Shown in pieces: positions 20,943 to 45,420 of a stretch of DNA of 64,000 bases. A program made the position numbers and the translations under genes. The stretch spans positions 61,580-125,579 of the IMG/VR virus record IMGVR_UViG_3300013426_000013. One strand, 5' to 3'. This stretch comes from a virus (lineage: Duplodnaviria > Heunggongvirae > Uroviricota > Caudoviricetes). Position 1 is the stretch's first letter; every line of letters begins with the position of its first letter. The notes beneath the pieces were generated by a model. That model saw nothing but the letters and a program-made list of their open reading frames with translations. It did not search any database and was not told the origin of the DNA.

Positions 20943-21280
20943 GACATTTTTATTGGTTTGGTGGGTATATTAAAAAACGCAATAGTTGTCAACGTGTTGA
21001 ATTTATTGTATCCAAAGAAGAAGCGAAACTTTACAAATTTGTCGACTATAAGCTTGTTGAAGAAAAGAATTCGTCGTCAAAAGATTTATGGAGTGATGCA
21101 TCAAGTATGATTCAAAAAGCTGGTCATTGGAGTGACGAAGCGGATGCAGCTTTAGCTTTTAACGGTTATTTGTGGTCTGAAATTACAAGACAAGAATTTA
21201 ATGAAATTTATAAAGCTGGAACTGTAGAAGAAAAAGACTTGCGAATGATTTACTTGCAGTATTTGAAAGAAAAAGACTAA
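20939..21280 (+). CDS. hypothetical protein
   Basis: 113 aa, start overlapping the previous stop (ATGA). Confidence 0.45.
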   Translation: MRHFYWFGGYIKKRNSCQRVEFIVSKEEAKLYKFVDYKLVEEKNSSSKDLWSDASSMIQKAGHWSDEADAALAFNGYLWSEITRQEFNEIYKAGTVEEKDLRMIYLQYLKEKD

Positions 21281-22245
21281 TGTCAAATAATAAACTAATT
21301 GATTGGTGGTTTCGGCAGTTTGATATCTCTAATGAAGAGATGAAGCTATTAAAATCATATGAAACAGATTTTGAAACAAAAGATGTTGAGTACTTTTATG
21401 ATTATGTAAAAGAAAAAGCATTGTCTATGCTTCCTGTACGTACATTTAATTATAATGTTCATTTTGACACGTGTGCGACAAATATTATTGATTGGTTATT
21501 TCAACAATTTGTAGATGATGATACATTAGTCATTACTACAATGAGCGAGCATCCGTCAGTTAAAAAGAATCTTGAGAAATGCAAGAATGTATTGTACATA
21601 TGTTGCAACGGTAAAGTTATTGAAGACTTTTACAAGAAATCAGAACAAATTCGTAATTTTAAAAGGGTTTTTGTTTATAGCATAGCATTGTCTGTAGGTG
21701 ATTGTCAAATTACGTTTAATGATATTATGAAAGATTTAAAACGTGATTTAGATTTGAGGCATATTCAATCTGTGTTTGTATTGGATGCAGTGCAAGAGTT
21801 GTTTATGCTACCGCGTGATTATGCGCTGTATGATTATGTTATAGGTACAGCACACGCGTTTGTAACACAATATGATACTGGTATTTTGTTTAGTAGAGAA
21901 TATGTTGAATCAACGAAAGAGTGCTTATCACGTGGAAATCAGTATTTAGATTTGTTATCTATTTTGATTAGAAATAAAGAGAAATTATATCAATTTAAGT
22001 ATGTGATGACACAAGTGTTTGGAAGTTATTTAGCAACAGACAACGCCTTAAGTGTTACGGAAAATGGTCCTTATGTATTTAATTTGGTTGATAAAAAGAA
22101 TAGATTGATTGGCATTACAGAAGCTGATCCTATTGCACAGCCTGAAAATACAAACGCAACTTTACGAGCATGTGAATCTTTACTAGATAAAGAAAAATTC
22201 ATCAATAAAGTTGAAACTATCAAATATTTATTATCGGAGAATTAA
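21280..22245 (+). CDS. cysteine-desulfurase-like (class V aminotransferase fold) protein lacking the PLP lysine, paralog 1
   Basis: Motifs TTMSEHPSV (compare IscS ITSxxEHxAV), LDAVQELF (compare VDAAQSVG) and DYVIGTAHAFVTQYDTGILF, which aligns with SufS/IscS [20 protein letters not shown] except that the Schiff-base Lys is Ala. About 320 aa, shorter than IscS. Confidence 0.55.
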   Translation: MSNNKLIDWWFRQFDISNEEMKLLKSYETDFETKDVEYFYDYVKEKALSMLPVRTFNYNVHFDTCATNIIDWLFQQFVDDDTLVITTMSEHPSVKKNLEKCKNVLYICCNGKVIEDFYKKSEQIRNFKRVFVYSIALSVGDCQITFNDIMKDLKRDLDLRHIQSVFVLDAVQELFMLPRDYALYDYVIGTAHAFVTQYDTGILFSREYVESTKECLSRGNQYLDLLSILIRNKEKLYQFKYVMTQVFGSYLATDNALSVTENGPYVFNLVDKKNRLIGITEADPIAQPENTNATLRACESLLDKEKFINKVETIKYLLSEN

Positions 22246-22247
22246 TA

Positions 22248-23108
22248 ATGTCTGATGAATTAGAAACTATTAACATTTTTGATTATGATAAATTTGATTG
22301 GAGTAGACTTGAAACACATTCAATATCAGGAATTAAAACTACGTCTAAAGAAGATGAAGATAGTTTTGTTAAGAGGTATTGTTTAAAAGAAGCTAAAGTT
22401 GTTATTGAACCTGATACTTTTCCTTATGATATAAAACAAGATTCAATTGGAATAGTTTATAGCGGCGGTTATGATTCAACTGTTTTAATGCTTAAAGCGT
22501 TGTTGAATGGTGAAACAGTGAAACCAATCATCTTTAATTTTGCACAAGATGATATAATTAAAGCAATTAATTTATCTGTTTTGAAGAAAAGGTTTGGCAA
22601 TAAATTATTAAAGCCTATTTGGTTTGGGTTGTTTGGCCTACAAGAAGGAATGTGTGGAAAGCAGTGTACACAACAGTTGATGATTCATAATAATTTGACA
22701 TATCTATCTGATGGCGTCTTGAAAAACTTAAAAGAAATTCAGATTGGGTATGTAATGAATGATGATGCTGTTTCTTTTCAAGAAGAATTTAAAAGTGTAG
22801 TATCAACAAGCTTTAAGATTCAAAATAAAAAGAACGTTCCTGTTACCTATCCTTTAATTCAAAAGCACAAATACTGTATTGATGATTTTATTGCACAGCA
22901 TTTAGGAAAGAATCATTTATGTTTGTCATGCGAATCACCAAACTTTAACTATTACAAAGATTCAGAAGCATTATATGTTGTTACAAAAGTTTGTCATTGT
23001 TGTCATTCTTGTTTCCAATCTAAATATTTAAAACTAAATTTTTATAATGATAGTGACAATTTAGTTTTAGCAACACGTATTCCTTTTGTAAAAAATTTTT
23101 GTTTTTGA
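22248..23108 (+). CDS. PP-loop ATP pyrophosphatase (QueC/TtcA/ThiI-like)
   Basis: 286 aa with the N-terminal PP-loop IVYSGGYDSTVLM (SGGxDS) and a C-terminal Cys cluster CLSCES ... VCHCCHSC resembling a QueC Zn site or TtcA Fe-S site. Confidence 0.65.
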   Translation: MSDELETINIFDYDKFDWSRLETHSISGIKTTSKEDEDSFVKRYCLKEAKVVIEPDTFPYDIKQDSIGIVYSGGYDSTVLMLKALLNGETVKPIIFNFAQDDIIKAINLSVLKKRFGNKLLKPIWFGLFGLQEGMCGKQCTQQLMIHNNLTYLSDGVLKNLKEIQIGYVMNDDAVSFQEEFKSVVSTSFKIQNKKNVPVTYPLIQKHKYCIDDFIAQHLGKNHLCLSCESPNFNYYKDSEALYVVTKVCHCCHSCFQSKYLKLNFYNDSDNLVLATRIPFVKNFCF

Positions 23109-23148
23109 TACTATAAACAATAATAAACTAATTGATGCTAGGTGCTTA

Positions 23149-23913
23149 ATGATTTTTGCAGATACAGAAACAACAGATTTAACAGATCCTAAAATTTGTT
23201 CAATTGCAATGATTAAGGTTGATTGTAAAGGTAATGTAATAGAAACATTGTCGGAATTAATTAACCCTGAAAAAGAAGTATCACCTGAAGCTAGTAATGT
23301 TAACGGATTTACTTTAGAAACATTGTCAAAGTATAAAACATTTAAAGAATTAGCAGATGAGATTATTCAATTCGTTGGTGACGATATTGTTGTATTTCAT
23401 AATGCTAATTATGACATGAGTGTATTGAACAAAGAATTTGCATGTTGTGATAAAACAGTTAATTGGAAAATTTTAGACACTTTGCGTTTGTCATACGATG
23501 TTTTGAATAGTCAACATAAACATGTAAAACATAACTTGAATGCATTAGTGAATTATTATGGTTTGACGAATTTACGTGATAATAAACATGATTCATTAAT
23601 TGATACGCTAATGTTAAAAGATGTTTATTACAAATTAATTGATGATTACAAACGAATTAAAAACACAAAAGATTTCTGGACACGTAATGGTTTAATCGAG
23701 CTAGCATCATATAAGCGCTCTAAAGTGTGTATTGCAGGTATTGGCTATAAACTTGATGATGTCACAAAAACAAAAAAATATTGGCGAGGTTATGTTTGGC
23801 TAAAAGATTCTGATGTGATCGAACCTATTTATACAAACAGAATAACTTTTAATACACGTGATGGTAAATTAACATTTTATTTAGATTCAGTTTCTATTTT
23901 AAAAATAAAATAG
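23149..23913 (+). CDS. DnaQ-like 3'-5' exonuclease (DEDDh)
   Basis: Exo I IFADTETTDL, Exo II VVFHNANYDMSVL, Exo III KHDSLIDTLM. Confidence 0.75.
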   Translation: MIFADTETTDLTDPKICSIAMIKVDCKGNVIETLSELINPEKEVSPEASNVNGFTLETLSKYKTFKELADEIIQFVGDDIVVFHNANYDMSVLNKEFACCDKTVNWKILDTLRLSYDVLNSQHKHVKHNLNALVNYYGLTNLRDNKHDSLIDTLMLKDVYYKLIDDYKRIKNTKDFWTRNGLIELASYKRSKVCIAGIGYKLDDVTKTKKYWRGYVWLKDSDVIEPIYTNRITFNTRDGKLTFYLDSVSILKIK

Positions 23914-23916
23914 TTG

Positions 23917-23945
23917 TTGACAATGTTTTATTTTCGATATAGTAT
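23917..23945 (+). promoter_or_regulatory. sigma70-like promoter TTGACA-N17-TAGTAT
   Basis: TTGACA at 23917-23922, upstream of the 23975 gene. Confidence 0.45.
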
Positions 23946-23974
23946 ATAACTATATTTGATAGGTAAGGTGTGAT

Positions 23975-24394
23975 GTGATGCAATTGGTTTTGGCAAAAGA
24001 AGAAATGAAGCAAGTGACAAAGTTGCGTAATTTGTTTAAAGGACTGTACGTTAGATGTTTCATGTCTATCGCAGTTGAAAACACTGATGTTGTTCGTGTG
24101 TTAAGTAAACAAAATCGAGCTACACAAGGAAATTGGTGGCGGGATCATCACAAAGCAAGTCAAGAACGTGAAATGTTAAATGTCTTTTATTTTAGTGACA
24201 GTGACAACGTAAGCATTGAATTAAAGGCAACTTTTGATAATAAAGAGTTTAATTTTTCGATTGTTGTCCCTATTAATGAATTAAGGCAAATTACAAAACA
24301 AACAAATTTAAGCGATTTAATTATTAAACCTGATTTTCATTGTGTTTTTGTTACTTTAAAAAATATTGGTGAAGTAGCTTTAGAAACTATTTAG
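23975..24394 (+). CDS. small protein, CTM family; ends IGEVALETI
   Basis: 139 aa with a canonical C-terminal motif. Confidence 0.55.
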   Translation: MMQLVLAKEEMKQVTKLRNLFKGLYVRCFMSIAVENTDVVRVLSKQNRATQGNWWRDHHKASQEREMLNVFYFSDSDNVSIELKATFDNKEFNFSIVVPINELRQITKQTNLSDLIIKPDFHCVFVTLKNIGEVALETI

Positions 24395-24403
24395 GTATGT
24401 GTC

Positions 24404-24709
24404 ATGATTGAACCTATTACAGAAAATTTGAGATTATTAATGAATTTGGTCAGTCAAAAGTTTTCGAACTTCGTTGATTGGAATGAGAAAGACGCTGCGA
24501 TTGATTCAAAATATTTGACCGTTAAAAATGTTTCTATAACAAATGGTTTTACAGGATTTGAACTAGATATACAAATCACATTGGCAGAGTTAATGCTAAT
24601 CACTGAAGATACAAAAGAAAATCAAATATTATTTGACTATAATAAAGAGTCTCATTTTCTTGAAGTGTCATTTAAAGATATAGGTGCGCAAACATTGGAG
24701 TGCGTGTAA
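24404..24709 (+). CDS. small protein, CTM family; ends IGAQTLECV
   Basis: 101 aa with a C-terminal motif. Confidence 0.5.
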   Translation: MIEPITENLRLLMNLVSQKFSNFVDWNEKDAAIDSKYLTVKNVSITNGFTGFELDIQITLAELMLITEDTKENQILFDYNKESHFLEVSFKDIGAQTLECV

Positions 24710-25059
24710 TGACTGTGTATGAGAAGTTTGAAACGCAAACAATGCAAATTGTTAAATCTTTAGATGGTAAAATTTTTAAAGATGAAAACGAATGTGAGTA
24801 CAAACTCGAAACTAAAGATGTTAAATATTCAATTGATTTAGTTGATACTTGGGCGGATTCTGATTTTTACTATATAAAGTTGTTTGCTGAAAGACAATAT
24901 TCTCTTTTGAAACAAAAGGAGATGTTTTATTTCAAAGTTTTGATTGATGGTTTTAACAATTGGCAAAAAGGAGATGTTTTAACTTTCAAATCTTGCAAGC
25001 GTCATTTCATTGATATGTCTATAGAAACTGTTGGGTGTGCATGCTTAAGTGAAATTTAA
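24700..25059 (+). CDS. small protein, CTM family; ends VGCACLSEI
   Basis: 119 aa with a C-terminal motif. Confidence 0.5.
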   Translation: MRVMTVYEKFETQTMQIVKSLDGKIFKDENECEYKLETKDVKYSIDLVDTWADSDFYYIKLFAERQYSLLKQKEMFYFKVLIDGFNNWQKGDVLTFKSCKRHFIDMSIETVGCACLSEI

Positions 25060-25119
25060 ACATATTGATAAGCGTTTGATTTTAATGTAGCATATATTGA
25101 CGAAAGAAGTGAGGAAAAA

Positions 25120-25563
25120 ATGAGAATTTTCGTAGTGCCGAGAAAATATATTAAGATGTATTCTTTTAAAGATATGTTTTTTAAATATAATAATTTCATT
25201 TCTATTGGTGAACAGGAGGGTTATGAAGGTGTACCTGTAAACACAAAAAATGTTTTAAAGCTTGTTTTTGATGATATGTCAGATAAAGAAACTGACGGCA
25301 TTTTGTTTAATGAAAAGCACGCAAAACAAATTAAAGAGTTTGTTGACAAAATTGATCACAGCAAAACGTTGTATGTTAATTGTTTTGCAGGAATTTCTCG
25401 AAGTGGTGCTGTAGGAACTGTCATTAATGATTATGTAAATTGTTATCTGAATGATTGTAAAAAGAATGAAGATTGGTTTGCTTTTTTTGATGATAACAAA
25501 CAGATTAAACCTAATGCATATGTTATGCGTGTTTTGAATAAAGAGTTCGGTTTATCATATTGA
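25120..25563 (+). CDS. Cys-based (CX5R) dual-specificity-type phosphatase
   Basis: 147 aa with VNCFAGISRSGAVGTVINDYV, matching the HCxAGxxRS(G) P-loop signature of DSP/PTP phosphatases. RBS GAGGAAAAAATG. Confidence 0.7.
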   Translation: MRIFVVPRKYIKMYSFKDMFFKYNNFISIGEQEGYEGVPVNTKNVLKLVFDDMSDKETDGILFNEKHAKQIKEFVDKIDHSKTLYVNCFAGISRSGAVGTVINDYVNCYLNDCKKNEDWFAFFDDNKQIKPNAYVMRVLNKEFGLSY

Positions 25564-25862
25564 TGATGAAGGTAAATAGCATGAAATTGTGTAAAAGTAA
25601 ATTTAAAGAAAAGGCCAATTATTTTTATCTTGATGCTGTTGATTACGTTAATGCTATTGATTTGAACAATTTTGTGATCCCTGAAAAGGTAGAGTTTACA
25701 TCAATCAAACAAATGGTTGAATATGCAATGGAATTAGTACCTGCTACTGCATTAGAGTCTTTTGCCAGTTTTCATTATATCAAAAATGATGTAATGAAAG
25801 AAGAAATTGCAATGTTGTTCAAATACGACAATAGTGGAAATTTACAAACATTTAAATGCTAA
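25560..25862 (+). CDS. hypothetical protein
   Basis: 100 aa, start overlapping the previous stop. Confidence 0.4.
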   Translation: MMMKVNSMKLCKSKFKEKANYFYLDAVDYVNAIDLNNFVIPEKVEFTSIKQMVEYAMELVPATALESFASFHYIKNDVMKEEIAMLFKYDNSGNLQTFKC

Positions 25863-26215
25863 ACCATTGAAATTGTTATATATCCATCACCAGATTTAAA
25901 TCTTTGAGTGTGTTTTACGTTCGTACATAAATCTGGGTTTGTGTATGAAGAACCACCTCCGCCGCCAGCACTACAAGTACCAACTTTTTTAACTAACCCA
26001 CTATCGCCGCCACCGCCGCCACCAACAACAGTAATTGTTAATGATAATAATTCTTTAGGTAAAGTGAAGCTATATGTTCCTGCTGCATTAAAAATTTTGT
26101 TTTCTGTCGTCTGAACTTTAGTGACATAAACAAGTGTCGATCCTTTATATATGCGTCTTGCTTTTTTGCTATTTGCGTTAATGATGCTGATGTTTGTAGT
26201 TTTGAAAAGTGACAT
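25859..26215 (-). CDS. glycine-rich structural protein family, member
   Basis: 118 aa with a TYSFTLPKELLSLTITVVGGGGGGDSG core shared with 49592, 49981, 60455 and 48962. A GTCGTACGA element lies ~50 nt upstream, at 26265. Confidence 0.55.
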   Translation of the reverse strand: MSLFKTTNISIINANSKKARRIYKGSTLVYVTKVQTTENKIFNAAGTYSFTLPKELLSLTITVVGGGGGGDSGLVKKVGTCSAGGGGGSSYTNPDLCTNVKHTQRFKSGDGYITISMV

Positions 26216-26264
26216 TTTAATAACTTTATGTAATTTATAAATAATCTATTTTAAGAACATAAAG

Positions 26265-26273
26265 TCGTACGAT
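26265..26273. promoter_or_regulatory. GTCGTACGA element, copy 3
   Basis: CATAAAGTCGTACGATAAATTTG, upstream of the minus-strand gene 25859-26215. Confidence 0.45.
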
Positions 26274-26282
26274 AAATTTGTA

Positions 26283-26335
26283 TGCGGGCAAAAATAAAGC
26301 CGCACATATTGTACGGCTTTATCATTTTATTGAAG
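26283..26335. terminator. bidirectional rho-independent terminator
   Basis: AAAGCCG ... CGGCTTT hairpin with flanking T/A runs, downstream of the minus gene ending at 26343. Confidence 0.5.
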
Positions 26336-26342
26336 TAATCAA

Positions 26343-26702
26343 TCACACTTCAAAAACGTAAGGAACTTCATCCTCGCGAATTTCAAAGATTTTATCATAT
26401 GTTTTGACATAACCTTGTTCAACCAGGTATTCAACAAAACCATAGAAGGGTGATTTAGCATCTTTTAACAATGCGTCTTTATACATTTTTCTTAAGTTGA
26501 AATCTTTAACAACAAGAAAAGTTGTGTGTTTTGCATCAGCATCATTATCAGCGAATTCGTTTAGTTCGATTAACTCACCAGCATGACAATCGAAACCTTC
26601 AGGTTCATAAGTATCCCAATCACGTTCAATAGCGTCTTCATTTAAGAATGAACGAACGAATTTACGATATGATTCTTCGAGATTAATTTTGGAATCAGAC
26701 AT
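26343..26702 (-). CDS. hypothetical acidic protein
   Basis: 119 aa with no motif. The terminator follows directly. Confidence 0.5.
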   Translation of the reverse strand: MSDSKINLEESYRKFVRSFLNEDAIERDWDTYEPEGFDCHAGELIELNEFADNDADAKHTTFLVVKDFNLRKMYKDALLKDAKSPFYGFVEYLVEQGYVKTYDKIFEIREDEVPYVFEV

Positions 26703-26815
26703 TGTTTTAGCCTATATTAAGTTGCAACTAAATAAAGAACAATATTTAAGATAATCAGCTTGACTTTACATTTTAATTTTGCTAATATTTCTTTACAAAC
26801 TAATGGAGAACTAAT

Positions 26816-27733: not shown

Positions 27734-28116
27734 CCGTTATGTTTACATATAGTTTACTCTTCTACCATAGTGACGGCACAATAACAGGGCCCCACATTGA
27801 TGCTTTTTGTGAAACTATAAAGGGTTTGAAATGCAAATCTCATATTAAATTTGACGGGTGTAATTTAGCGACAATATTTGATACAGAAAAATTTTTTATG
27901 GATTCTGGTGAATATTATACTTTAAAAGCAAAGGTTGAAAACACAGAGAAACATATGTTTACGGTTGAAACTTTTTGTGTTGATAAAGATTGGTTTAAAA
28001 GTATTAATTGTTTTGACAATATGAAATTTAAAGTCATTTTGAAAACAACAACTAAAGGCAATTTACAATTTATAAATGAACAACCTATAGGTGAAATTAT
28101 TTTGGAAGATTTGTGA
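27703..28116 (+). CDS. small protein, CTM family; ends IGEIILEDL
   Basis: 137 aa with a C-terminal motif. Confidence 0.5.
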   Translation: MVCKAFSRVITVMFTYSLLFYHSDGTITGPHIDAFCETIKGLKCKSHIKFDGCNLATIFDTEKFFMDSGEYYTLKAKVENTEKHMFTVETFCVDKDWFKSINCFDNMKFKVILKTTTKGNLQFINEQPIGEIILEDL

Positions 28117-28959: not shown

Positions 28960-28969
28960 AGGAATTAAA

Positions 28970-29596: not shown

Positions 29597-29642
29597 TTAC
29601 TTGTTTTTATATATAATGCTCATATAAAAAGGTTTAGTTGAA

Positions 29643-29951: not shown

Positions 29952-29960
29952 AGGTGCTAC

Positions 29961-30143
29961 ATGATAGTTGAATTATCAGAAAAACAAATAATTAGTAAAT
30001 CGGAAAAAGAACATTTAAAACGTGTTGAGCAATTGAATAGCCTAGAGCATTTAAACAATATTGCACGTGAAGAGTTGAAAGAGTGTTTGAGAATCCATTT
30101 TGAATTGTTTGGCTTTAAAAGGTTAAAAAATGAGAAATTATAA
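29961..30143 (+). CDS. small coiled-coil protein
   Basis: 60 aa with an RBS AAAGGTG. Weak. Confidence 0.3.
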   Translation: MIVELSEKQIISKSEKEHLKRVEQLNSLEHLNNIAREELKECLRIHFELFGFKRLKNEKL

Positions 30144-35753: not shown

Positions 35754-35804
35754 CAAGTGTTAAAAATGTTCTTTAATTTGCTATTTTAACTAAAGGTTTT
35801 TAAG

Positions 35805-36470
35805 ATGTTTGACCAAAATACAGTTGTTCATTTTGAGAATGAAAATAAAGAAGATATCAAAAAAGTATTAGATGAATTGTTTGCATATGAAGAAACTCTA
35901 GAAGACAATTCGAATGTTAAGCTTGATTTGAAAGGAAAAAGTCTTGACACAATTGCTTTTGTTTTGAAAGAAGCACTGAATAATCCTGAATTAAAAAACA
36001 TTCAGTTGTTAACAAACGTATTGTGTCTGTTGAAGTCATATTTTACATTTGATTCCAGCTTTTTTGAATCTGAAGATATTTATGTTAATAAATCAGTTGA
36101 ATTGGTTGATTTGAAACGCCGTCTGAAAGATGACATCAATAAAGTTTCACGGCAAGTAGCTATTTATTTTCTGTCAATTTGTAGATCGTTGAACAAGGTT
36201 GAATATACTATGCTTGATTCATACAGGCCGTTGCCGAACCTTTACCATACACTCTTCTTGACAACAGATATGGTTACCATTAGCAGCATTTTATGTGATG
36301 TTAAAGATGGTTCTTTTTCTGAATGTTCATTGGTTCGAGATGCTAATTTATACTTTAATTCTATTATGAGTAAGTATCGTATTGGCAATGAAATGATGAA
36401 TGAATTCTTAAGACCAATCTTAAAACAGTTTCAGAAAGAAGACGGTGTAGAAAATGAAAAAGCTGATTAA
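35805..36470 (+). CDS. hypothetical protein
   Basis: 221 aa. Confidence 0.45.
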   Translation: MFDQNTVVHFENENKEDIKKVLDELFAYEETLEDNSNVKLDLKGKSLDTIAFVLKEALNNPELKNIQLLTNVLCLLKSYFTFDSSFFESEDIYVNKSVELVDLKRRLKDDINKVSRQVAIYFLSICRSLNKVEYTMLDSYRPLPNLYHTLFLTTDMVTISSILCDVKDGSFSECSLVRDANLYFNSIMSKYRIGNEMMNEFLRPILKQFQKEDGVENEKAD

Positions 36471-37110
36471 GTATAATGATCTAATTGAGTATGCTTTAAC
36501 ATATATTTCATCAGTTTGTGAAAACATTGATGGCATGAAGTCATCTGTTCCTGATGATGTTAAAAATGGTTATACACGCGTTCTTGCTAACAACGGTAAA
36601 CATTCTTTCACAATGGTAGTTTCTGATGGTACTGTTGCACAAGTTGCTTCTTCTACTGTTCGTTCTGAATTGACTAGCTTTTTGTCAACATATGGTGTAT
36701 ATTCAAAAGCAGGTACTTTGATTAATGCTAAAGGTGTTTTGAATTTCTTTAACTATTTAGCGTCCTTCATTAGTGGACATGTGTTTACTGTTGTAAATAA
36801 TGTATCGGGAAACAAGTGTTGTATTTATAAATCAGGTGCAGTTACTGTTTCAGGTGTTGCTAAATTGTCAGAAGAAATCAATTCTGATCCTGAACGCCAT
36901 GAAGTAATTTTTACGACAACACATAACGAATATAATCTGGCATCTTTAGCTGAAGCTTTGAAGAATGTGACAAGTGTTAAAAGTGTAAATACATTGATTA
37001 ATTATGCATGTTCATCTTCATCATCTTCATCAAGTTCATCTTGCAGTTGTTCGAGCAGTTCAAGTTGTTGTAGTTCATCTTCTTCATACATTGTCTATAT
37101 GATGATTTAA
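36454..37110 (+). CDS. hypothetical protein with C-terminal poly-Ser/Cys tract
   Basis: 218 aa. The C-terminus reads CSSSSSSSSSSCSCSSSSSCCSSSSSYIVYMMI, encoded by an imperfect (TCN)n microsatellite. Confidence 0.45.
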   Translation: MKKLIKYNDLIEYALTYISSVCENIDGMKSSVPDDVKNGYTRVLANNGKHSFTMVVSDGTVAQVASSTVRSELTSFLSTYGVYSKAGTLINAKGVLNFFNYLASFISGHVFTVVNNVSGNKCCIYKSGAVTVSGVAKLSEEINSDPERHEVIFTTTHNEYNLASLAEALKNVTSVKSVNTLINYACSSSSSSSSSSCSCSSSSSCCSSSSSYIVYMMI

Positions 37111-37120
37111 TAGGTGCAAT

Positions 37121-37681
37121 ATGAATATTACATATAGCAACATCACAACAACAATGCTAAATAAGTTGATAGCAATGTGTGCTAATATCAATAATTATGG
37201 CAACATTGACGCTTGTTTTAAAGCAGGTTTTTCTGTCAATGTAAAGGTACCTCATACATATACTGCTCCAGGCTCTGGCGGTAGGGTAGAATACGTACCT
37301 ATTTCAAATTATTCATTGACAGGCAATGCGGTTCCGCAACAAACCGCTGCAAATTTAACAAATGATTATAATGCATTTATTGCAAAATTAGGTTTAAATT
37401 TGAATGCAAAATGTACTGTTAACGGTATATTTTATTTGTTAGAAAATATTGTAGAATTTGCTAAAAGCAATATTTTTTTCGCAACTAGCATATATACAGG
37501 CAATAAATGGGTTGTTTATATACCTTCTAACGAATCTGTGCGTGTACACAATGCATCTGAACTGTCTGATGATATCGTAAGAGAAAACCCTGTCACTAAA
37601 ATTATTGAAGAGTATGTAACCGCAATTCGTAATCGTATTCGTGCATACCCAGCTATATATACATTTAAGATTGTAAAGTAG
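37121..37681 (+). CDS. hypothetical protein
   Basis: 186 aa. Confidence 0.45.
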   Translation: MNITYSNITTTMLNKLIAMCANINNYGNIDACFKAGFSVNVKVPHTYTAPGSGGRVEYVPISNYSLTGNAVPQQTAANLTNDYNAFIAKLGLNLNAKCTVNGIFYLLENIVEFAKSNIFFATSIYTGNKWVVYIPSNESVRVHNASELSDDIVRENPVTKIIEEYVTAIRNRIRAYPAIYTFKIVK

Positions 37682-37692
37682 AGGTAGTTTTT

Positions 37693-38331
37693 ATGAAAAA
37701 GTTTAATCTGAAATTGGGAAATAACTTTTGTCCTTTTTGTGGAAGTGAATTAACATATAACGATGAATATAAAGTAGTTTATTGCAAAACATGTAAAGAA
37801 AATGGACATACTGTTCAGTTTAAATATAAAGATGATCCGCAAGAAGCTTTTGATTATGCCAATACACGTAATGGTGAAAATGAGCTTTTAGAAAAGTTGC
37901 AAGACCTTTATGCATACTTAAAACAGTTAGGTATTGAAGGCCAGAATCTTGAAGATATTTCTGTGGCATCTGAAGGTGAATTGCCAAACAATGGTTGGAT
38001 TATCACTGAAGAAGCTGTTGCATTGCCTTGCGAAGAACCTCATGATGAAATGTATTCGCATTTAGTTACAGACAAAACCATTAATTTATCTGATCGTCAA
38101 GAAGTCTGCAATGTCATTCATTGTATTAATGTTACATATGTAATGAAAGTCCTTGACATATACATTCCAAAAAGATATAATGCAAAACAGAAAGAAGTTT
38201 TAACAAAGGTTTGCTCAAAGTATCCGAAAGATACTAAAATTGAAGTCGAATATTTGACAGAAGCTAAAGGCAAACAGTTTGAAACTTTTGATGGGTTAAG
38301 TGACTTTTTACTATTTTTGGATACAATCTAA
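37693..38331 (+). CDS. zinc-ribbon protein
   Basis: 212 aa with an N-terminal CPFCGSEL ... YCKTCKEN CxxC-CxxC ribbon. It directly precedes the radical-SAM array. Confidence 0.5.
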   Translation: MKKFNLKLGNNFCPFCGSELTYNDEYKVVYCKTCKENGHTVQFKYKDDPQEAFDYANTRNGENELLEKLQDLYAYLKQLGIEGQNLEDISVASEGELPNNGWIITEEAVALPCEEPHDEMYSHLVTDKTINLSDRQEVCNVIHCINVTYVMKVLDIYIPKRYNAKQKEVLTKVCSKYPKDTKIEVEYLTEAKGKQFETFDGLSDFLLFLDTI

Positions 38332-39194
38332 TGGATATCAAACCAATCACGGAATTTCTTCTTTGGGATAATTGCAATAACAATTGTAAGTTTTGTTTTC
38401 AACGGAAGAATCCAAGATTGTTTTCATTAGAGGAACAAGAACAAATTCTTGACAATGTGTTAAGGTTTCTTAATTCAGATGAATATATAAAAGGAAGTCA
38501 TGTACTCGTTGTTGGCGGTGAACTATTTGATCGTGATCGCGGGTTCATGCTTCCTTTTTTTGAACAGATTATTGAAAAAATGTTGTCTGACGACATTGAT
38601 ATTCTGTATTTGAATACGAATTTGATTTACGATCAAACATATTCAACAATGTTGAAACCTGTTTTAAAAATGTTCGATGCAAATAGTCTGTTTGACAGAT
38701 TAAAGTTCACAACATCTTTTGATATTGCCGGAAGGTTTAAAACGAAACAGGCACGTTCATTAGTATTGTCAAACCTATTGTTGTTAAAAGATGATTTTCC
38801 TAATCTTCGAACTGTTGTTAACATCATCTTAACAAAACAGTTTTGTGAAAGTGTTATCAATGAAAAGTTTGACATCTTTCATTTCATGGAATCGTTTAAT
38901 GTTAATACAAATCTAATTCCATACATTGTGTTGAATAAAGAGTTGTGTGCTGATAGAGAAACGATATTTGAAGCTTTAAGGAAGATTAATGAACAGCACC
39001 CTGAATATATCAGACAATACGTAGATAATATGGATTTGAGACATAAAAGGTATCTGTATGCTTGCTATCCAGATAATTTAAAATTGTGCAGTTGTGATGA
39101 TTCAGAATGTGGCCATTCTGTAAACTTTAAGAAATATAGCGATGACCATGAAGCATGTTTTGTTTGTGATTTAAAGAGAGTTTTTGATCTATGA
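38331..39194 (+). CDS. radical SAM enzyme, tandem paralog 1
   Basis: 287 aa with N-terminal NCNNNCKFCF (CX3CX2C [4Fe-4S]/SAM motif) and VVGGELFD (GGE SAM-binding motif). C-terminal cysteine cluster CSCDDSECGHSV ... CFVCD. Confidence 0.7.
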   Translation: MDIKPITEFLLWDNCNNNCKFCFQRKNPRLFSLEEQEQILDNVLRFLNSDEYIKGSHVLVVGGELFDRDRGFMLPFFEQIIEKMLSDDIDILYLNTNLIYDQTYSTMLKPVLKMFDANSLFDRLKFTTSFDIAGRFKTKQARSLVLSNLLLLKDDFPNLRTVVNIILTKQFCESVINEKFDIFHFMESFNVNTNLIPYIVLNKELCADRETIFEALRKINEQHPEYIRQYVDNMDLRHKRYLYACYPDNLKLCSCDDSECGHSVNFKKYSDDHEACFVCDLKRVFDL

Positions 39195-40147
39195 CTAAAG
39201 TAAACACAAATGTAGTAGATTGTGGTGAACATCGTTTTCTACAATTTAATTTATGGAAAGATTGCAATAATAATTGTGAATTTTGTTTTTATCGTGGTCA
39301 CAAATTGTTATCAAATGAAAAGAAAATTTCATCAATCAATTTTGTTAAAGAAAGATTGTTGGATTTGGAAGAATCTGATTTCTATAATGAAATTGGTTTC
39401 ATTGGTGGTGAGTTTTTTGATAATCAGATTGAAGATGAATCTGTGAAAAAGGCTTTTTACAAATTATTTGATATTTTAAAAGACAAACGAGAGCGCGGAA
39501 AGCTTGACCGTATTTATATTACAACTAATCTGATTTTTGATTCGAACAGATTGTTGAGACCGTTTCTTGACTACTTAAAAGAATTAAATTTATTAGATAT
39601 CACATTGTTGTGTACTTCATATGATTTGAAGTATCGGTTTCATAATGAAAAAGCATTACAGTTGTGGCAAACCAATATGGTTGAATTGTCAAAAGATTAT
39701 AACACAATGATTCATACAGAGATTATTGTGACGCAAGCATTTATTGACGCTGTAATGAAGGGAACATTTAATATTGAAGAGTTCTGTGAAAAATACAACA
39801 CACGTATTGATTATATTGAACCATCTTCAGGGTTTTATTTTTATGATAAAAAAGAGTGTGAGAAGGAAGTTAAAGACTTCTTCCCAAAACGTGAAGATTT
39901 CTTAAACTTTATTCAATATACAGCAATTGATAACCATTGGATTGATTTAACAAAATTCTTATCAATGCGCATTCGTTCTGATACGTTATATTGTCATTTA
40001 AAAGGACAGTGGCGAAAATTAGAAGGTCGTCGATCTCAATACATTTGTCCAACTTTAGGTTTGTATAATGTGACATATGAGAATGGTTATTGTGATTCAA
40101 AAGAGTCAATGGTTGAAGATGTTAATGCATTTTTAGGTAGTGTTTAA
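39191..40147 (+). CDS. radical SAM enzyme, tandem paralog 2
   Basis: 318 aa with DCNNNCEFCF and FIGGEFFD. The C-terminus differs (YCHLKG ... YICPTLG ... YCDS). Confidence 0.7.
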   Translation: MTKVNTNVVDCGEHRFLQFNLWKDCNNNCEFCFYRGHKLLSNEKKISSINFVKERLLDLEESDFYNEIGFIGGEFFDNQIEDESVKKAFYKLFDILKDKRERGKLDRIYITTNLIFDSNRLLRPFLDYLKELNLLDITLLCTSYDLKYRFHNEKALQLWQTNMVELSKDYNTMIHTEIIVTQAFIDAVMKGTFNIEEFCEKYNTRIDYIEPSSGFYFYDKKECEKEVKDFFPKREDFLNFIQYTAIDNHWIDLTKFLSMRIRSDTLYCHLKGQWRKLEGRRSQYICPTLGLYNVTYENGYCDSKESMVEDVNAFLGSV

Positions 40148-41079
40148 TGGGAAAAATGGTGCAATATTCGATGTGGTCTAATTGCAGCAATCATTGTGAT
40201 TTCTGTTTAATTCGTGACCATCATCACTATACGAAAAAAGAGCAGGTTGCTAATATTCGTAGGATTCGCGAAAACATCAAGCATGTTGATTGGCAAAATG
40301 AATTTTCATACGGAATTTCTTTATTAGGTGGTGAATTGTATTTCATTACAGATAAAGAAGTGCAAGATGAATTCATGCTGTTAATTAATGATATCATTGA
40401 TAATATTCTGTTAAAAGTTGATAATGAATTCTGTCGATATTCATCCGTTACAAATGGCTTGTATGATCCAACGTTTCTTTTTCGTGTAATTGATGAAATT
40501 AAAAACCGTGCAGGTATTGAAAAGGTTGATATTAACTTTTCATACGATTTGAAATACAGATATCATTCTGAAGAAAGAAGAAAACTTGCTTTAGAAAATA
40601 TTAACAAATTTCATGACCGATACAACTATCGTGTTGGTGTTCAGATGATTGTTACACAACATTTGATTAATTTATGTAAATCAGGTGAATTTAATGTAGC
40701 CGAATTTGTTGAAAAAGAAATTCCTGGTTGTGTGTTGTCATTGTTGTACCCGCACCCTGTTCAGACAGGAAATAAACTCCCAGATTTTTTCTTTAAACGT
40801 GAAGATCTGTTTTGGTTTGTCGATTACTTAAGAGAAAATTGTCTTGATACGTATTATAATTTTTTGTATAGTACAAAAAATTCCGGAACTTTTAAATATA
40901 CAGGGTTCCTTGACAGAACATCTAAAGGATTAAAACACCTTGATCAACAACCAACTTTATCTGATGGTAAAGAAGAGTTAAGTGAATGCGGACATTCTGT
41001 TTTGTATAAATGCTATTCTGATAGTAATGACTGTATGTTGTGTGATTTGGAATTACTAGAAGCGGATATTAATTCATGA
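40147..41079 (+). CDS. radical SAM enzyme, tandem paralog 3
   Basis: 310 aa with NCSNHCDFCL and LLGGELYF. C-terminal ECGHSVLYKCYSDSNDCMLCD. Confidence 0.7.
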   Translation: MGKMVQYSMWSNCSNHCDFCLIRDHHHYTKKEQVANIRRIRENIKHVDWQNEFSYGISLLGGELYFITDKEVQDEFMLLINDIIDNILLKVDNEFCRYSSVTNGLYDPTFLFRVIDEIKNRAGIEKVDINFSYDLKYRYHSEERRKLALENINKFHDRYNYRVGVQMIVTQHLINLCKSGEFNVAEFVEKEIPGCVLSLLYPHPVQTGNKLPDFFFKREDLFWFVDYLRENCLDTYYNFLYSTKNSGTFKYTGFLDRTSKGLKHLDQQPTLSDGKEELSECGHSVLYKCYSDSNDCMLCDLELLEADINS

Positions 41080-42056
41080 ATACTGAAATGAACAATAGAC
41101 AGGAATGCCAATTTGAAGTTTGGACTGAATGCAATTCTAAATGTGTCTTTTGTTATTTAAGTACAAATAACATCAAAACTTTAGATGAAATTAAAATCAG
41201 GCAAATGAATAAAATCATTGACAGCATGAATGAACCTGATTTTTGCAAAAAGTTTAATAAAGTAGCATTTATTGGTGGTGAATTTTATCAAGGACAATTG
41301 GCTAATCCTGAAGTCAAATCCAAATTTATGGAAATGATGGATGTTGCTGCTAAATTGTTGAATGACGGTAAAATTAATGAAGTCTGGACATGTGCAACTT
41401 TAACCATTGGCGACCAAAAAGATATGTATGAAGTGTTGAAGAAATTCAATGATATATCAAAAGTTTGGGTGTTGACATCCTATGATACAATTGGAAGATT
41501 CCATACACCTAAAATGAAACAAACATGGCTCGACAATATGCAAAAGCTGCGTGATACATATAAAGATATTAAAATCAATATCACATCTATTCTAACAGGT
41601 GATTTTATTGATAAATATCTTGAAGGTACTTTAGATTTATGGGAGATTGCTAACAAATATCAGGCTGCTGTTTTCTTGAAACCTGCTTGCCCTATTGACC
41701 GTAATGAAAAGTCACAATATACAAAAGAAGAAACGAATCAAATTATTCCAAACTTCTTTCCAACACGTGACAAATTTATTGAATTTCTATATAAATTTAG
41801 AATGAATGAACCTGAATTTATGTATGATAAATTGTTCAATATGAAATATCGCAGCGATTATTTGTATAGATTTGAAGAAGGTGAAATGCACTGTTCCCAT
41901 CGTGTAAAGGAAACACAGCAAGAATTTTATGATAAACAAATTGCCGACAATGTTGTTAATAAATGTGGTCATAGTTCACAATATCAAATCTATTTAGATA
42001 GCGAAGAGTGTGCAGTTTGTGATAAAGAAATGATTAAGGAAATGCTAAATGATTGA
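41076..42056 (+). CDS. radical SAM enzyme, tandem paralog 4
   Basis: 326 aa with ECNSKCVFCY and FIGGEFYQ. C-terminal CSHR ... NKCGHSSQY ... EECAVCD. Confidence 0.7.
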   Translation: MNTEMNNRQECQFEVWTECNSKCVFCYLSTNNIKTLDEIKIRQMNKIIDSMNEPDFCKKFNKVAFIGGEFYQGQLANPEVKSKFMEMMDVAAKLLNDGKINEVWTCATLTIGDQKDMYEVLKKFNDISKVWVLTSYDTIGRFHTPKMKQTWLDNMQKLRDTYKDIKINITSILTGDFIDKYLEGTLDLWEIANKYQAAVFLKPACPIDRNEKSQYTKEETNQIIPNFFPTRDKFIEFLYKFRMNEPEFMYDKLFNMKYRSDYLYRFEEGEMHCSHRVKETQQEFYDKQIADNVVNKCGHSSQYQIYLDSEECAVCDKEMIKEMLND

Positions 42057-42987
42057 ATCTATTCTAGAAAAAGTAGCGTTTAACAGTGCTGAATTTGCAT
42101 ATTATAAAGAAGCATTAAAGAGTTATAATGCAAAAGAACTGATGTCTGAACGTGATTATGTATCTGTAGACGAAACTTTAAAAAAGTTTTTACCTTGTCA
42201 AATTAATGATGATTATCATTTCACATTTTCTACTACAGCAACAGATTTAATTAAACAGTTGTTTGCAAAATATGTTGATGATGAAACTTTAGTTTTGACA
42301 ACAAATAGCGAACATCCAAAAGTTCAAGAAATTCTAAAGAAATGTAAAAATGTTGTTAAGGCTTTTGATAAAGAAACATTGCAGCAGTTTACAGTAGACA
42401 AGAAATATAAACGTGTTTTTATTTATATGATTGGTACAATGTGTGCAACAGGTCATATTGTATATGATCAAGAATTTGAATCAATCATTGAACGTGCGAA
42501 AGCGTCAGGAAAAGAAGTAATTACAGTTATTGATGCCGTTCAGGAATTGTTTTTGTTATATCGTGATTATAATAAATTCGATTATGTTATTGGAACAGCT
42601 CATGCCTTAATCCCAGAATACAACGTTGGATTGTTACTATCAAAAGATAATTCAATTGGGAAACCTTTAGCAATTGCTCAACCTTTTGTTACAATGCTGA
42701 ATTGGTTGTTGAAACGAAAAGAGTATCTTTATCAATTTAATACCTATATGAGTATGGAATTTGGAAATACTCGCAACACTCAATTTCATTTTGATTTTGG
42801 TATTAGTCACCTGTTTTTTATTAAAACTAGAAATGGTGAATTTAATCAAATGCAGGAAGAAGACACTGTAAGAGATAATATTGATAATGTTGGCGTACTG
42901 TTTAGAGGTTGTTGGTCTGTTGTAGATAAAAACAATTTTAACAATCTTTTTCAAACAACAAAATTTATTGTTGATGGGAATTTATAA
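42049..42987 (+). CDS. cysteine-desulfurase-like protein lacking PLP lysine, paralog 2
   Basis: 312 aa with TTNSEHPKV, IDAVQELF and DYVIGTAHALIPEYNVGLLLS, the same K-to-A substitution as paralog 1. Confidence 0.55.
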   Translation: MIESILEKVAFNSAEFAYYKEALKSYNAKELMSERDYVSVDETLKKFLPCQINDDYHFTFSTTATDLIKQLFAKYVDDETLVLTTNSEHPKVQEILKKCKNVVKAFDKETLQQFTVDKKYKRVFIYMIGTMCATGHIVYDQEFESIIERAKASGKEVITVIDAVQELFLLYRDYNKFDYVIGTAHALIPEYNVGLLLSKDNSIGKPLAIAQPFVTMLNWLLKRKEYLYQFNTYMSMEFGNTRNTQFHFDFGISHLFFIKTRNGEFNQMQEEDTVRDNIDNVGVLFRGCWSVVDKNNFNNLFQTTKFIVDGNL

Positions 42988-43076
42988 TCAAATTTTTATA
43001 TAAAATCATATAAATATCACTTGTATTTTCCTTAAAAAGATGATATTATAAAATAAGTAAGTTAAGGATTATCTGA

Positions 43077-44423
43077 ATGATAACATTGAAAATTAAATAT
43101 ATTGCAGAAAGGGCATCTGATAATCAGGTGATAGCTGATTATCAGATGCAGTATAATAATCTTCTGCATTTATTCTATAATAGATTAAAGGATGGTACAT
43201 CTGAAACAAAATGTAAACATTTACAATTCAATAACCTTGATTTAATGAAATCTTGGTTTAGACAATCTTGTGTGAAAGATGCTTCATTCTTGTTAAAGAA
43301 GAATGAGGAAACAATCTTATTTGGTGGAAAGTATCTTTTTGAACAAAGATTTAGACATAACATTTCAAAGGAAGAATTTAAAGAAAGAAGATTAGTTCCA
43401 TTGTGTTCAATTGGTGAAGGCAGATGTAATGGAAATAGATTCTTCAGATTGTCTGAAGATTGTTATTCAGTCATATTTAGTCCTATGTTAAAACAAAAGA
43501 CGAAGTTAAAACTCATTGGTGTTGGTAATAGGATTAAAGTATTAAAGAAATTATATATTCACCAACAATTAAAAGATACACCAATTACTTATAAATTGGA
43601 TAAGAAATTTGTATATATCTCATTTGATGAATCTATCTTACGAGATAAGATTGTTAAACCAATATCCAACAGAATATTTTCCATAGATATGAATCCCAAT
43701 TACATCGGATGGTCAGTCGTAGACTTGAAAGAATCTGATGAATTCAAGGTTGTGAATTCAGGTGTAATATCACTGAAAAATATCAACGATGTTGAGTTCA
43801 AATTTAAGAAATTAAAATTACCTTCAACATCCACAGAAAGAAAACATCTGAACAATAAACGCAACTATGAAACATTGGAAGTATCAAAGTTTCTTGTCGA
43901 TATATCTAAACATTATCATTGTGAGTGTTTTGCTATTGAAGATTTGGTTATCAAATCCAAGGATAATTATCAAGGAAAGAATTTCAATAGACTTATAAAC
44001 AATAATTGGAATAGAAATAAACTAGTCAATAACTTAAGAAAAAGATGTAATATATTCGGTATTAAATTTGTAGAAATATCTCCACAATATTCATCTGTTA
44101 TAGGCAATTTAGTTTACAGGGAATTAAGATTACCTGATATGGTTTTATCTTCTATTGAGATCAGTAGAAGATGCTATGAATTTAATCTTCAATACATAAA
44201 GAAGATTAAAGCTAAAACGAAGAATGTGATCTTTCCAGATTTAACAGAATTACTATTAGACAAAGTAAAACACTCGTTGGAAGAAGTAAAGTGCTTTGTG
44301 GATTTTGTGAGTTGGAAACAGATTCATTCAGAGTTAAAGAAATCTAAACTTAGATATAGATTTCCTCTTGACGAAAGAGTCTTTAAGACTAAAACCTTAA
44401 GGTTTATTAATGTTTTTATATGA
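43077..44423 (+). CDS. TnpB/OrfB (IS200/IS605)-like protein, truncated, lacking zinc finger and RuvC-III (TldR-like, probably nuclease-dead)
   Basis: 448 aa. The N-terminus MITLKIKYIAE ... NNLLHLFYNRL resembles the TnpB N-terminus. RuvC-I is FSIDMNPNYIGWSV and RuvC-II is CFAIEDLVIKSKDNYQGKNFNRLINNNW ... GIKFVEISPQYSSVIGN (compare TnpB IAIEDLNVKG ... W ... PxYTSQxC). There is no CxxC ... CxxC finger and no D-x-D-x-NAA motif downstream. Confidence 0.55.
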   Translation: MITLKIKYIAERASDNQVIADYQMQYNNLLHLFYNRLKDGTSETKCKHLQFNNLDLMKSWFRQSCVKDASFLLKKNEETILFGGKYLFEQRFRHNISKEEFKERRLVPLCSIGEGRCNGNRFFRLSEDCYSVIFSPMLKQKTKLKLIGVGNRIKVLKKLYIHQQLKDTPITYKLDKKFVYISFDESILRDKIVKPISNRIFSIDMNPNYIGWSVVDLKESDEFKVVNSGVISLKNINDVEFKFKKLKLPSTSTERKHLNNKRNYETLEVSKFLVDISKHYHCECFAIEDLVIKSKDNYQGKNFNRLINNNWNRNKLVNNLRKRCNIFGIKFVEISPQYSSVIGNLVYRELRLPDMVLSSIEISRRCYEFNLQYIKKIKAKTKNVIFPDLTELLLDKVKHSLEEVKCFVDFVSWKQIHSELKKSKLRYRFPLDERVFKTKTLRFINVFI

Positions 44424-44454
44424 TTTTAATGAATTTTAATATTTTAGGTGTTTA

Positions 44455-45420
44455 ATGAAATTAATTGCTAATTGGTTGAACAGTTTCAACTACTCAAAAG
44501 AAGAGCTTGCTAAATTGACTAGCATACGTGATTCTGAACAAATTGTTGAAGATAATTTTGAAGAAGAAAAAAATAGAACTTTTTCTATGCTTCCATTCAA
44601 TAGCTTTACGCATAAAGAATTATCAGTGGATACGTGTGCTACAAACATTATAAATAAATTGTTTGATAAATATGTTGACGATGATACTTTAGTTATTACT
44701 ACAGGTAGTGAACATCATTCTGTTAAAAATAATTTTAAGAAATGCAAGAATTTAATTCATTTTGTTTGTCGAGGTGAGATTCGTAAAGATATAGACATTA
44801 TAAAAGAAATCAAACCTTTTAAAAAGGTATTCATTTATATGATTGCTTTAAGCGTTGGTGATACACATTATTTAAACAATTGTATTATTGAATGGTTGCA
44901 ACAAATTTTAAAAGAAAACAATAAACAGTTTGTTACTGTATTGGATGCTGTTCAAGAACTATTTCTATTGCCACGTGACTACTCTATTTATGATTATGTA
45001 GTAGGTACTTCACATGCTTTGATTCCAAATTATGATATGGGTATGTTATTTGGTAAATCAGACTTTTCTTATAAAGCAGGAAATTGGTTGAAAGATTTTA
45101 ACGATTGCATGTCAATTTTATTAAGAAATAGAGACAAACTCTATCAATTAAATGTAATTATGAGGCAGCATTTTGCTAAATTTACAACATTTGATAAAGA
45201 CTTAATTGATTCAAGTCGAGCGCCATACGTTTATAATTTATGTGACTATAAAAAACGTTTAGAAGGGTTAAATGATGTAGATTATGAGCACGGGGCAATT
45301 GTCCCGGGTGATTATACACCTGTAACTTTTCGAGCCTGTCCTTTCCTTGCACATCAAGAAAAGTTTATAGATAGGATACAACAAATAGACAATATTCTTG
45401 AAATAGATATTGGCAATTAA
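44455..45420 (+). CDS. cysteine-desulfurase-like protein lacking PLP lysine, paralog 3
   Basis: 321 aa with TTGSEHHSV, LDAVQELF and DYVVGTSHALIPNYDMGMLFG (Ser at the Lys position). Confidence 0.55.
   Translation: MKLIANWLNSFNYSKEELAKLTSIRDSEQIVEDNFEEEKNRTFSMLPFNSFTHKELSVDTCATNIINKLFDKYVDDDTLVITTGSEHHSVKNNFKKCKNLIHFVCRGEIRKDIDIIKEIKPFKKVFIYMIALSVGDTHYLNNCIIEWLQQILKENNKQFVTVLDAVQELFLLPRDYSIYDYVVGTSHALIPNYDMGMLFGKSDFSYKAGNWLKDFNDCMSILLRNRDKLYQLNVIMRQHFAKFTTFDKDLIDSSRAPYVYNLCDYKKRLEGLNDVDYEHGAIVPGDYTPVTFRACPFLAHQEKFIDRIQQIDNILEIDIGN

Follow-up and report, generated by a model that had tools for sequence, protein, structure and literature searches.

In the fold-type-I enzymes ColD, E1 and SpnQ, the lysine that would hold the cofactor as a Schiff base is replaced, the cofactor is bound non-covalently and pyridoxamine 5'-phosphate (PMP) makes the Schiff base with the substrate; E1 further couples this PMP chemistry to one-electron chemistry of an iron-sulfur (Fe-S) cluster (PMC8987622). 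Here we describe NifSL, a protein family that is also naturally without the Schiff-base lysine and that, by sequence profiles and an AlphaFold model, has the fold of the cysteine desulfurases NifS and IscS. Three open reading frames (ORFs) of the family, which we name NifSL-A, NifSL-B and NifSL-C, lie in a 64,000-nucleotide stretch of phage DNA (Caudoviricetes; IMG/VR record IMGVR_UViG_3300013426_000013, positions 61,580 to 125,579), called the window below. ColD, E1 and SpnQ belong to a DegT/AAT-like branch and act on nucleoside-diphosphate (NDP)-4-keto-6-deoxy-hexoses in sugar clusters, neither of which holds for NifSL, and E1 and SpnQ have a [2Fe-2S] Cys motif, whereas NifSL has no conserved Cys column and no sugar-pathway families nearby.

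The group-I desulfurases NifS, IscS and NFS1 (class V, PF00266) share with NifSL the fold, the seven-stranded domain for pyridoxal 5'-phosphate (PLP) and the topology of the small domain. As in IscS, NifSL keeps the Thr of the GAT motif, the stacking His, the Asp to the pyridine nitrogen, the Gln to O3' and the Ser/Thr-x-His phosphate contacts, along with a probable carboxylate-binding Arg. Unlike the desulfurases, with which it has 13-16% identity, it has neither the Schiff-base lysine nor a conserved cysteine, is about 80 aa shorter, gives no PF00266 match and, as judged by secondary-structure matching, is without the Cys loop, without the GGGxE..RSGT loop and without the C-terminal tail.

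B6 and radical chemistry are combined in enzymes of the lysine 2,3-aminomutase type, where a 5'-deoxyadenosyl radical acts on a substrate-PLP aldimine and PLP serves as a radical-stabilizing sink with no lysine base needed. In these aminomutases PLP sits in the radical S-adenosylmethionine (radical-SAM) polypeptide itself with a lysine internal aldimine, unlike NifSL, which is a separate protein without the lysine. In phages, a PLP enzyme adjoins a radical-SAM enzyme in the thymidine-hypermodification pathway (gp52/gp53 of M6 and gp226 of ViI); structure prediction paired the hypermodification PLP enzymes with PLP-dependent enzymes, in the case of ViI gp226 with tryptophan synthase beta, and they have predicted internal-aldimine lysines (K36 and K92) (PMC8989533). 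The NifSL cassette similarly pairs a PLP-fold protein with an adjacent radical-SAM gene, but the PLP enzymes of M6 and ViI work on amino acids linked to DNA and are accompanied by genes for 5-hydroxymethyl-2'-deoxyuridine (5-hmdU) kinase and aGPT-Pplase, which are absent from the window. Thymidine hypermodification was rejected as an explanation of the cassette: its PLP enzymes keep the predicted aldimine lysine and are unmatched to the NifS/IscS fold, and the window has no hmdU-pathway genes.

The gene arrangement is also reminiscent of radical-SAM cassettes for peptides that ribosomes make and that are modified after translation (RiPPs) or for protein maturation (polytheonamide/proteusin, anSME and sactipeptide/ranthipeptide), in that a gene for a protein with a conserved, low-complexity C-terminal "core" lies directly upstream of several radical-SAM genes. 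The large N-terminal domain of this gene's product, u218a, could serve as a leader, and known radical-SAM enzymes, anSME among them, take both Ser and Cys. Unlike the RiPP systems, the cassette combines four distinct radical-SAM enzymes with a B6-fold protein, shows no detectable SPASM or RRE domain and has no protease or exporter, and its candidate precursor u218a is a folded protein of ~200 aa.

A Desulfurase Fold Without the Schiff-Base Lysine

The original prediction, made from the sequence of the window, placed three cysteine-desulfurase-like ORFs at coordinates that proved exact:

21280..22245 (+): NifSL-A, 321 aa; by translation, AlphaFold2 model and Foldseek search, a cysteine-desulfurase-fold protein without the Lys and the Cys loop
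42049..42987 (+): NifSL-B, 312 aa; shares its first 8 nt with the end of the radical-SAM gene rSAM-A
44455..45420 (+): NifSL-C, 321 aa; 43-44% identical to NifSL-A

The three proteins are paralogs, as had been proposed, with 32-44% identity and BLASTP E values of 1.9e-79 (A-C), 4.9e-43 (A-B) and 3.5e-41 (B-C). They are 83-92 aa shorter than IscS (404 aa), in line with the earlier estimate of ~80 aa. The quoted motifs TT-x-SEH-(P/H)-x-V, (L/I)DAVQELF and DYV(I/V)GT(A/S)HA(F/L)...Y(D/N)xG(I/L/M)L(F/L) are present, except that the form EHPxV given for the first of them fails in NifSL-C (EHHSV).

Standard domain libraries do not recognize these proteins. The Pfam scan gave no match for any of the three, and none to PF00266 even at E<=1; the PHROG scan was similarly empty, as was the NCBIfam scan of NifSL-A, the only paralog scanned against that collection. 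A profile of the three proteins (HMMER), on the other hand, matches the NifS-like protein of T. maritima (1ecx; E=2.4e-4), and AlphaFold2, given the family alignment, yields a confident model of NifSL-A (pLDDT 92.5, pTM 0.91) in which the fold-type-I large domain has its seven strands. A Foldseek search of the PDB with this model returned 1276 matches at E<=1e-3, the best being NifS, IscS, NFS1 and SufS (E=2e-11 to 3e-9, TM 0.56-0.67, 12-16% identity). The class-V (NifS/IscS/SufS), fold-type-I architecture that had been suggested for the three proteins is supported by these searches.

Relatives of the three proteins are numerous. A word-indexed search found 59 of them, and an exhaustive search of 1.84 billion representatives with a hidden Markov model (HMM) raised the number to 235 clusters with E<=1e-3, 205 of them reaching E<=1e-10; counted as clusters at 50% identity, the family has at least 235. 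Of the 150 best matches listed, almost every full-length member has a length of 300-390 aa, and the relatives carry no Pfam domain or functional name in their source annotations. In 50,697 GenBank phage records, megablast of the region and tblastn of NifSL-B found no homologs, which agrees with the earlier remark that such proteins are unusual for a phage. A scan of 185,579 species genomes of GTDB gave a single match, on a 249-kb contig that is binned as Bacilli, carries the whole cassette described below and is probably a phage. NifSL is a self-contained, phage-restricted family derived from the group-I cysteine desulfurases (NifS/IscS), and its members are found only in huge phages.

Loss of Catalytic Residues and Conservation of the Cofactor Pocket

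The register of the active site was fixed with two independent alignments, one of the HMMER profile against 1ecx and one made with hhalign between a 49-member family alignment and Escherichia coli IscS, for which the query sequence was 100% identical to PDB 1p3w. The former sets "GtaHAl" of NifSL on "FSAHKF", and the latter gives the same register. In both, A193 of NifSL-A falls on K206, the Schiff-base lysine of IscS, and the equivalent residues around it are T67=T76, H91=H104, D169=D180, Q172=Q183, T190=S203 and H192=H205 (NifSL-A=IscS). In IscS, T76, S203 and H205 contact the phosphate, H104 stacks on the pyridine ring, D180 binds the pyridine N1 and Q183 binds O3'.

Conservation was computed from an alignment of 189 NifSL members of at least 250 aa with a median pairwise identity of 27%. 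The lysine column contains Ala in 125 of the sequences, Ser in 43, Val in 15, Asn in three and Gly, Cys and Thr in one each, and never Lys or His. The replacement of the PLP lysine noticed in the three window proteins is therefore confirmed by both alignments and is family-wide, with a small residue in its place. In no other column does the share of Lys exceed 74%, and in none does that of Cys exceed 50%. The residues around the lost lysine show the opposite pattern: D169, H192 and G201 are 100% conserved, followed by T190 (99.5%), H91 (98%), Q/H172 (98%), T/S67 (93%) and R296 (93%), and four of the six most conserved columns (D169, H192, T190 and H91) are cofactor contacts in IscS. These columns show a cofactor pocket that is clearly under strong purifying selection. 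Near-invariant pocket residues at a median identity of 27% favor ligand binding, and NifSL very probably still binds PLP or PMP.

The whereabouts of the roughly 80 missing residues were mapped from the secondary structure of the model, IscS numbering and a small-domain alignment (A8). Relative to IscS, ~9 residues appear to be gone at the N terminus and ~20 after G201, where the GGGxE..RSGT loop carrying Thr243 would be deleted. A further loss of at least ~26 residues, placed between the last two strands of the small domain, would have taken the Cys328 loop and the helix after it, and the ~25-residue C-terminal tail of IscS seems to be absent. With the register taken from secondary structure, the segment between these two strands is 5-19 aa long in NifSL vs ~45 aa in IscS; a sub-profile of the C-terminal small domain gave no usable alignment with IscS or the PDB. 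R296 sits in the strand equivalent, by secondary structure, to that of IscS R354, which binds the substrate alpha-carboxylate, and is the probable counterpart of this arginine.

A check for the catalytic Cys loop, which the original prediction had called for, was negative: no Cys column is conserved among the 189 sequences and the loop segment is shortened. As the loop is missing along with the lysine, canonical desulfurase chemistry is, at the level of sequence, effectively refuted for NifSL.

A Four-Family Cassette in Huge Phages

In the window, NifSL-B is the last gene of a cassette that runs from 35805 to 42987 and whose genes are separated by 1-17 nt overlaps or 10-11 nt gaps. Its members are, in order:

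35805..36470 (+): u221, helical protein encoded first in the cassette and conserved; matches neither a family nor a PDB entry
36454..37110 (+): u218a, a 185-aa alpha/beta domain without known fold, followed by a C-terminal Ser/Cys tail; candidate substrate
37009..37107 (+): tail of u218a, CSSSSSSSSSSCSCSSSSSCCSSSSS-YIVYMMI-COOH
37121..37681 (+): u218b, u218a paralog without the tail
37693..38331 (+): u212, N-terminal zinc ribbon; optional member, found in 4 of 17 loci
38331..39194 (+): rSAM-D, with CNNNCKFC, GGE and a C-terminal CGHS..CxxC; Pfam Radical_SAM 1.5e-5
39191..40147 (+): rSAM-B; Pfam Radical_SAM 1.8e-7
40147..41079 (+): rSAM-C, radical-SAM orthogroup C
41076..42056 (+): rSAM-A, among the radical-SAM genes the most frequent immediate upstream neighbor of NifSL
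42049..42987 (+): NifSL-B

The cassette was compared across 17 independent loci: the window, L004, L006 and L008-L021, the last fourteen from IMG/VR contigs of 65-287 kb. Only four protein families are common to at least 15 of the 17:

Radical-SAM: 88 genes, ~5 per locus
NifSL: 19 genes, usually one per locus
u218: 31 genes
u221: 16 genes

NifSL is an obligatory member of this four-family cassette and its only B6-fold component. The association with radical-SAM enzymes pointed out for the window is real and conserved across the loci; the triplication of NifSL, present as three paralogs in the window, is lineage-specific, most cassettes carrying one copy. Distant NifSL members, u218a homologs and the GTDB scan led to seven further loci with members of these families, five of which (L022, L025, L027, L028 and L029) contain the cassette itself. 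A search begun from u218a homologs or from distant NifSL members leads back to the same cassette, and the independent huge-phage loci that contain it number more than 20. The conserved neighbor families of the 17 loci include no protease, exporter, glycosyltransferase or ATP-grasp/YcaO gene, and no relatives of known function were detected for u221. No counterpart of the cassette as a system has been described: we found no account of it or of NifSL in the literature on lysine-less NifS-like proteins, on polyserine and radical SAM in phages, or in a comparative overview of jumbo phages. In L006 and L007, long ORFs appear only with TAG translated as sense (code 15), the ORF coverage then being ~1.0 vs 0.11-0.15 under code 11, and the cassette therefore occurs in stop-codon-recoded phages too.

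The radical-SAM genes fall into four ancient orthogroups, A-D, each found in 11-12 of 12 non-redundant loci. The usual gene order is D-B-C-A-NifSL, the adjacency of A and NifSL being the most conserved. CxxxCxxC (C15, C19 and C22) and GGE are invariant in 46 radical-SAM sequences (alignment A3), and all but one of the four orthogroups end with a CGHS..CxxCD motif in the C-terminal part. The Pfam domains detected in these proteins are Radical_SAM and Fer4_12 only. In the PDB, the radical-SAM profile matches viperin and viperin-like enzymes best by sequence, in two stretches (E=3e-6 to 3e-4), and the NCBIfam viperin model matches at ~1e-4. In L028, a gene of ~600 aa at 10668-12533 matches the radical-SAM profile and may consist of two fused radical-SAM modules.

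A Ser/Cys-Tailed Candidate Substrate

The protein u218a ends in ...ACSSSSSSSSSSCSCSSSSSCCSSSSSYIVYMMI, and its tail is predicted to be disordered. The gene with its Ser/Cys tail adjoins the radical-SAM array in 16 of the 17 loci and also in the loci retrieved via u218a, and the tail is kept in 107 of 120 u218 homolog clusters. The medians for the tail are 22 Ser/Cys residues and four Cys (range 1-8), with Cys enriched at position -6, and after the tail the extreme C terminus reads x-[FY]-I-[AVG]-Y-[MF]-x-[IL]. The Ser codons of the window tail are mixed (TCA, TCT, AGT, AGC and TCG), and the tail therefore seems to be selected as protein and not as a DNA repeat. The idea of one radical-SAM enzyme for each tail cysteine was rejected, the two numbers showing no correlation.

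Two smaller observations concern the tail. In L028, it ends in a different motif (...CCSCLTIVHQDLSML). The window contains 10 tRNA genes at 14032-17417, including tRNA-Ser(GCU) and tRNA-Ser(UGA), whose codons (AGY and UCA) dominate the poly-Ser tail of u218a.

Possible Functions of NifSL

The reading that we favor, and for which we see about an even prospect of being right, is that NifSL contributes a non-covalently held PLP/PMP to a maturation pathway of several radical-SAM enzymes, as a subunit, and that the pathway probably works on the Ser/Cys tail. NifSL would hold PLP or PMP non-covalently and make a Schiff base directly with an amine or carbonyl of the substrate, forming no persulfide. 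The four non-redundant radical-SAM enzymes would abstract hydrogen atoms from a substrate on which NifSL would carry out Schiff-base (electron-sink) chemistry. As this substrate, the best candidate would be the conserved poly-Ser/Cys tail of u218a, or else free Ser/Cys, processed first and then attached to the tail. As no protease or exporter is conserved, the product would probably remain on the protein. A bolder version, in which the four radical-SAM enzymes and the lysine-less, non-covalent PLP/PMP protein form a huge-phage post-translational maturation machine that rewrites the encoded poly-Ser/Cys tail into a polymer-like modification, is tentative and we lean against it. If true, it would be a new enzyme logic, with a B6 cofactor that has no internal aldimine and works in trans with radical-SAM enzymes, and a new class of ribosomally encoded product.

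Several observations weigh against a PLP/PMP-dependent maturation of the tail. Ala, Ser or Val at the lysine position gives no general base, whereas ColD and E1 have a catalytic His there (PMC8987622), and the loop that in IscS brings in the phosphate-binding Thr243 from the partner subunit appears to be deleted. PLP chemistry requires a free amine or carbonyl and internal Ser/Cys of a peptide offer neither, so that a tail substrate would need prior radical-SAM chemistry or a free amino-acid co-substrate. Tail cysteines and radical-SAM genes do not vary together in number, Cys is absent from a few tails, and locus L021 carries NifSL without u218 or u221 nearby. Finally, both the equivalence of R296 with R354 and the limits of the Cys-loop deletion come from secondary-structure matching and not from a residue-level structural alignment.

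The original prediction had offered a choice between a pseudo-enzyme and an enzyme with non-covalent PLP. As a pseudo-enzyme, NifSL would be a non-catalytic scaffold or adaptor for the radical-SAM enzymes, or a holder of the u218a tail, with the old pocket now structural or ligand-sensing. The loss of both ancestral catalytic residues (0 of 189 with Lys, no conserved Cys), the lack of a general base in place of the lysine and the single copy per cassette beside 4-7 radical-SAM genes all fit such a role, but four of the six best-conserved columns are cofactor contacts, which a scaffold does not need and which are usually lost in pseudo-enzymes; we consider this reading unlikely. The near-invariance of the pocket favors ligand binding, although sequence does not decide between the two. 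Another reading is that the cassette makes a small molecule or modified nucleotide, with viperin-like radical-SAM enzymes acting on a nucleotide or sugar, NifSL as a ColD/E1-like PMP dehydratase or aminotransferase, and u218 and u221 as carriers or merely syntenic structural genes. This is suggested by the viperin matches of the radical-SAM profile and by the near-invariant R296, which hints at a free carboxylate ligand, and lysine-less PMP enzymes act on keto-sugar nucleotides (PMC8987622). The viperin similarity is, however, weak and mostly that of the shared radical-SAM core; genes for sugar nucleotides, kinases, transferases, FolE/QueD/QueE/TGT or the hmdU pathway are absent from the window and the conserved neighbors; NifSL is closest to NifS/IscS and not to DegT-type sugar enzymes; and the strict co-conservation of a Ser/Cys-tailed protein would be unexplained. 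Altogether we regard it as quite improbable.

An IscS-like fold without catalysis could also serve as a decoy of host IscS/NifS that sequesters IscU, TusA, ThiI or DndC, and thereby blocks host tRNA thiolation or a phosphorothioate-based defense, or diverts Fe-S clusters to the phage radical-SAM enzymes. A phage with 4-7 such enzymes does need Fe-S clusters, and one NifSL copy adjoins a PP-loop ATPase in the window lineage. Mimicry would nevertheless not require a strictly conserved cofactor pocket, the IscS C-terminal tail and Cys loop that contact the partners are deleted in NifSL, the PP-loop neighbor is lineage-specific, and NifSL is translationally coupled inside the radical-SAM operon, which leaves the decoy a long shot. 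Hardly credible at all is a working cysteine desulfurase that provides sulfur for the radical-SAM enzymes or the PP-loop ATPase with its Lys and Cys placed elsewhere in the sequence: the NifS/IscS fold and the gene context would suit it, but no column exceeds 74% Lys or 50% Cys in the 189 sequences and, by secondary-structure matching, the segment bearing Cys328 is deleted.

If NifSL does bind PLP or PMP, its clusters, at least 235 in number, would make up a large natural family of class-V fold that works without the Schiff-base lysine, and would extend a rarity known mainly from the sugar dehydratases of ColD/E1 type. The cassette is a compact and complete set of 7-8 genes in which unknown chemistry of uncultivated gut-type huge phages can be tested, and it gives context to four protein families without annotation in Pfam, PHROG or the literature.

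Lineage-Specific Features and Other Content of the Window

Around NifSL-A and NifSL-C, which lie outside the cassette, two further genes were identified:

22248..23108 (+): QueC-like PP-loop ATPase (SGGYDST), adjoining NifSL-A; phrog_1550 4.9e-11, TIGR00364 2.3e-6; not a core gene
43077..44423 (+): TnpB-related gene between NifSL-B and NifSL-C; TIGR01766 4.8e-7; mobile element outside the system

The co-location with a PP-loop ATPase remarked on in the original prediction holds for the window and L024, where the gene adjoins NifSL-A, but it is a feature of this lineage and absent from L022. A 7-deazaguanine pathway around the QueC-like gene was rejected, as FolE, QueD, QueE and TGT are absent from the window and the PP-loop gene is lineage-specific; the window has no other 7-deazaguanine genes or thiolation partners. 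Two NifSL genes close the cassette of L022, and the latter of them is 53% identical to NifSL-A and is followed by an RNase_T gene and small genes, as is NifSL-A in the window. This arrangement indicates that a rearrangement split the NifSL-A block from the cassette. In L004, an IS607-like resolvase and TnpB (11205-12939) occupy the place equivalent to that of the window's TnpB-related gene, just after NifSL, which suggests a recurrent insertion site of mobile elements behind NifSL.

The window matches a 313-kb metagenomic phage genome (GCA_902725505.1). Rfam finds only tRNAs in it, and beyond the cassette it carries a Pnkp/RNA-ligase gene, Dam and tail-related genes. Three paralogs of 417-440 aa with 35-39% identity are encoded at 18774-20096 (-), 61272-62525 (+) and 62611-63909 (+), and the two of them scanned against PHROGs gave no match. 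At 11075-12854, an ORF of 297 aa (11075-11968) is followed by a tandem copy in two ORFs (11968-12504 and 12501-12854) with 55-59% identity, and either a duplicate that suffered a frameshift or a programmed split could account for it. A protein of 755 aa encoded upstream of the tRNA cluster (6009-8276; phrog_8238, E=3e-154), in which polynucleotide kinase, phosphatase and RNA ligase are fused, is likely to function in tRNA repair.

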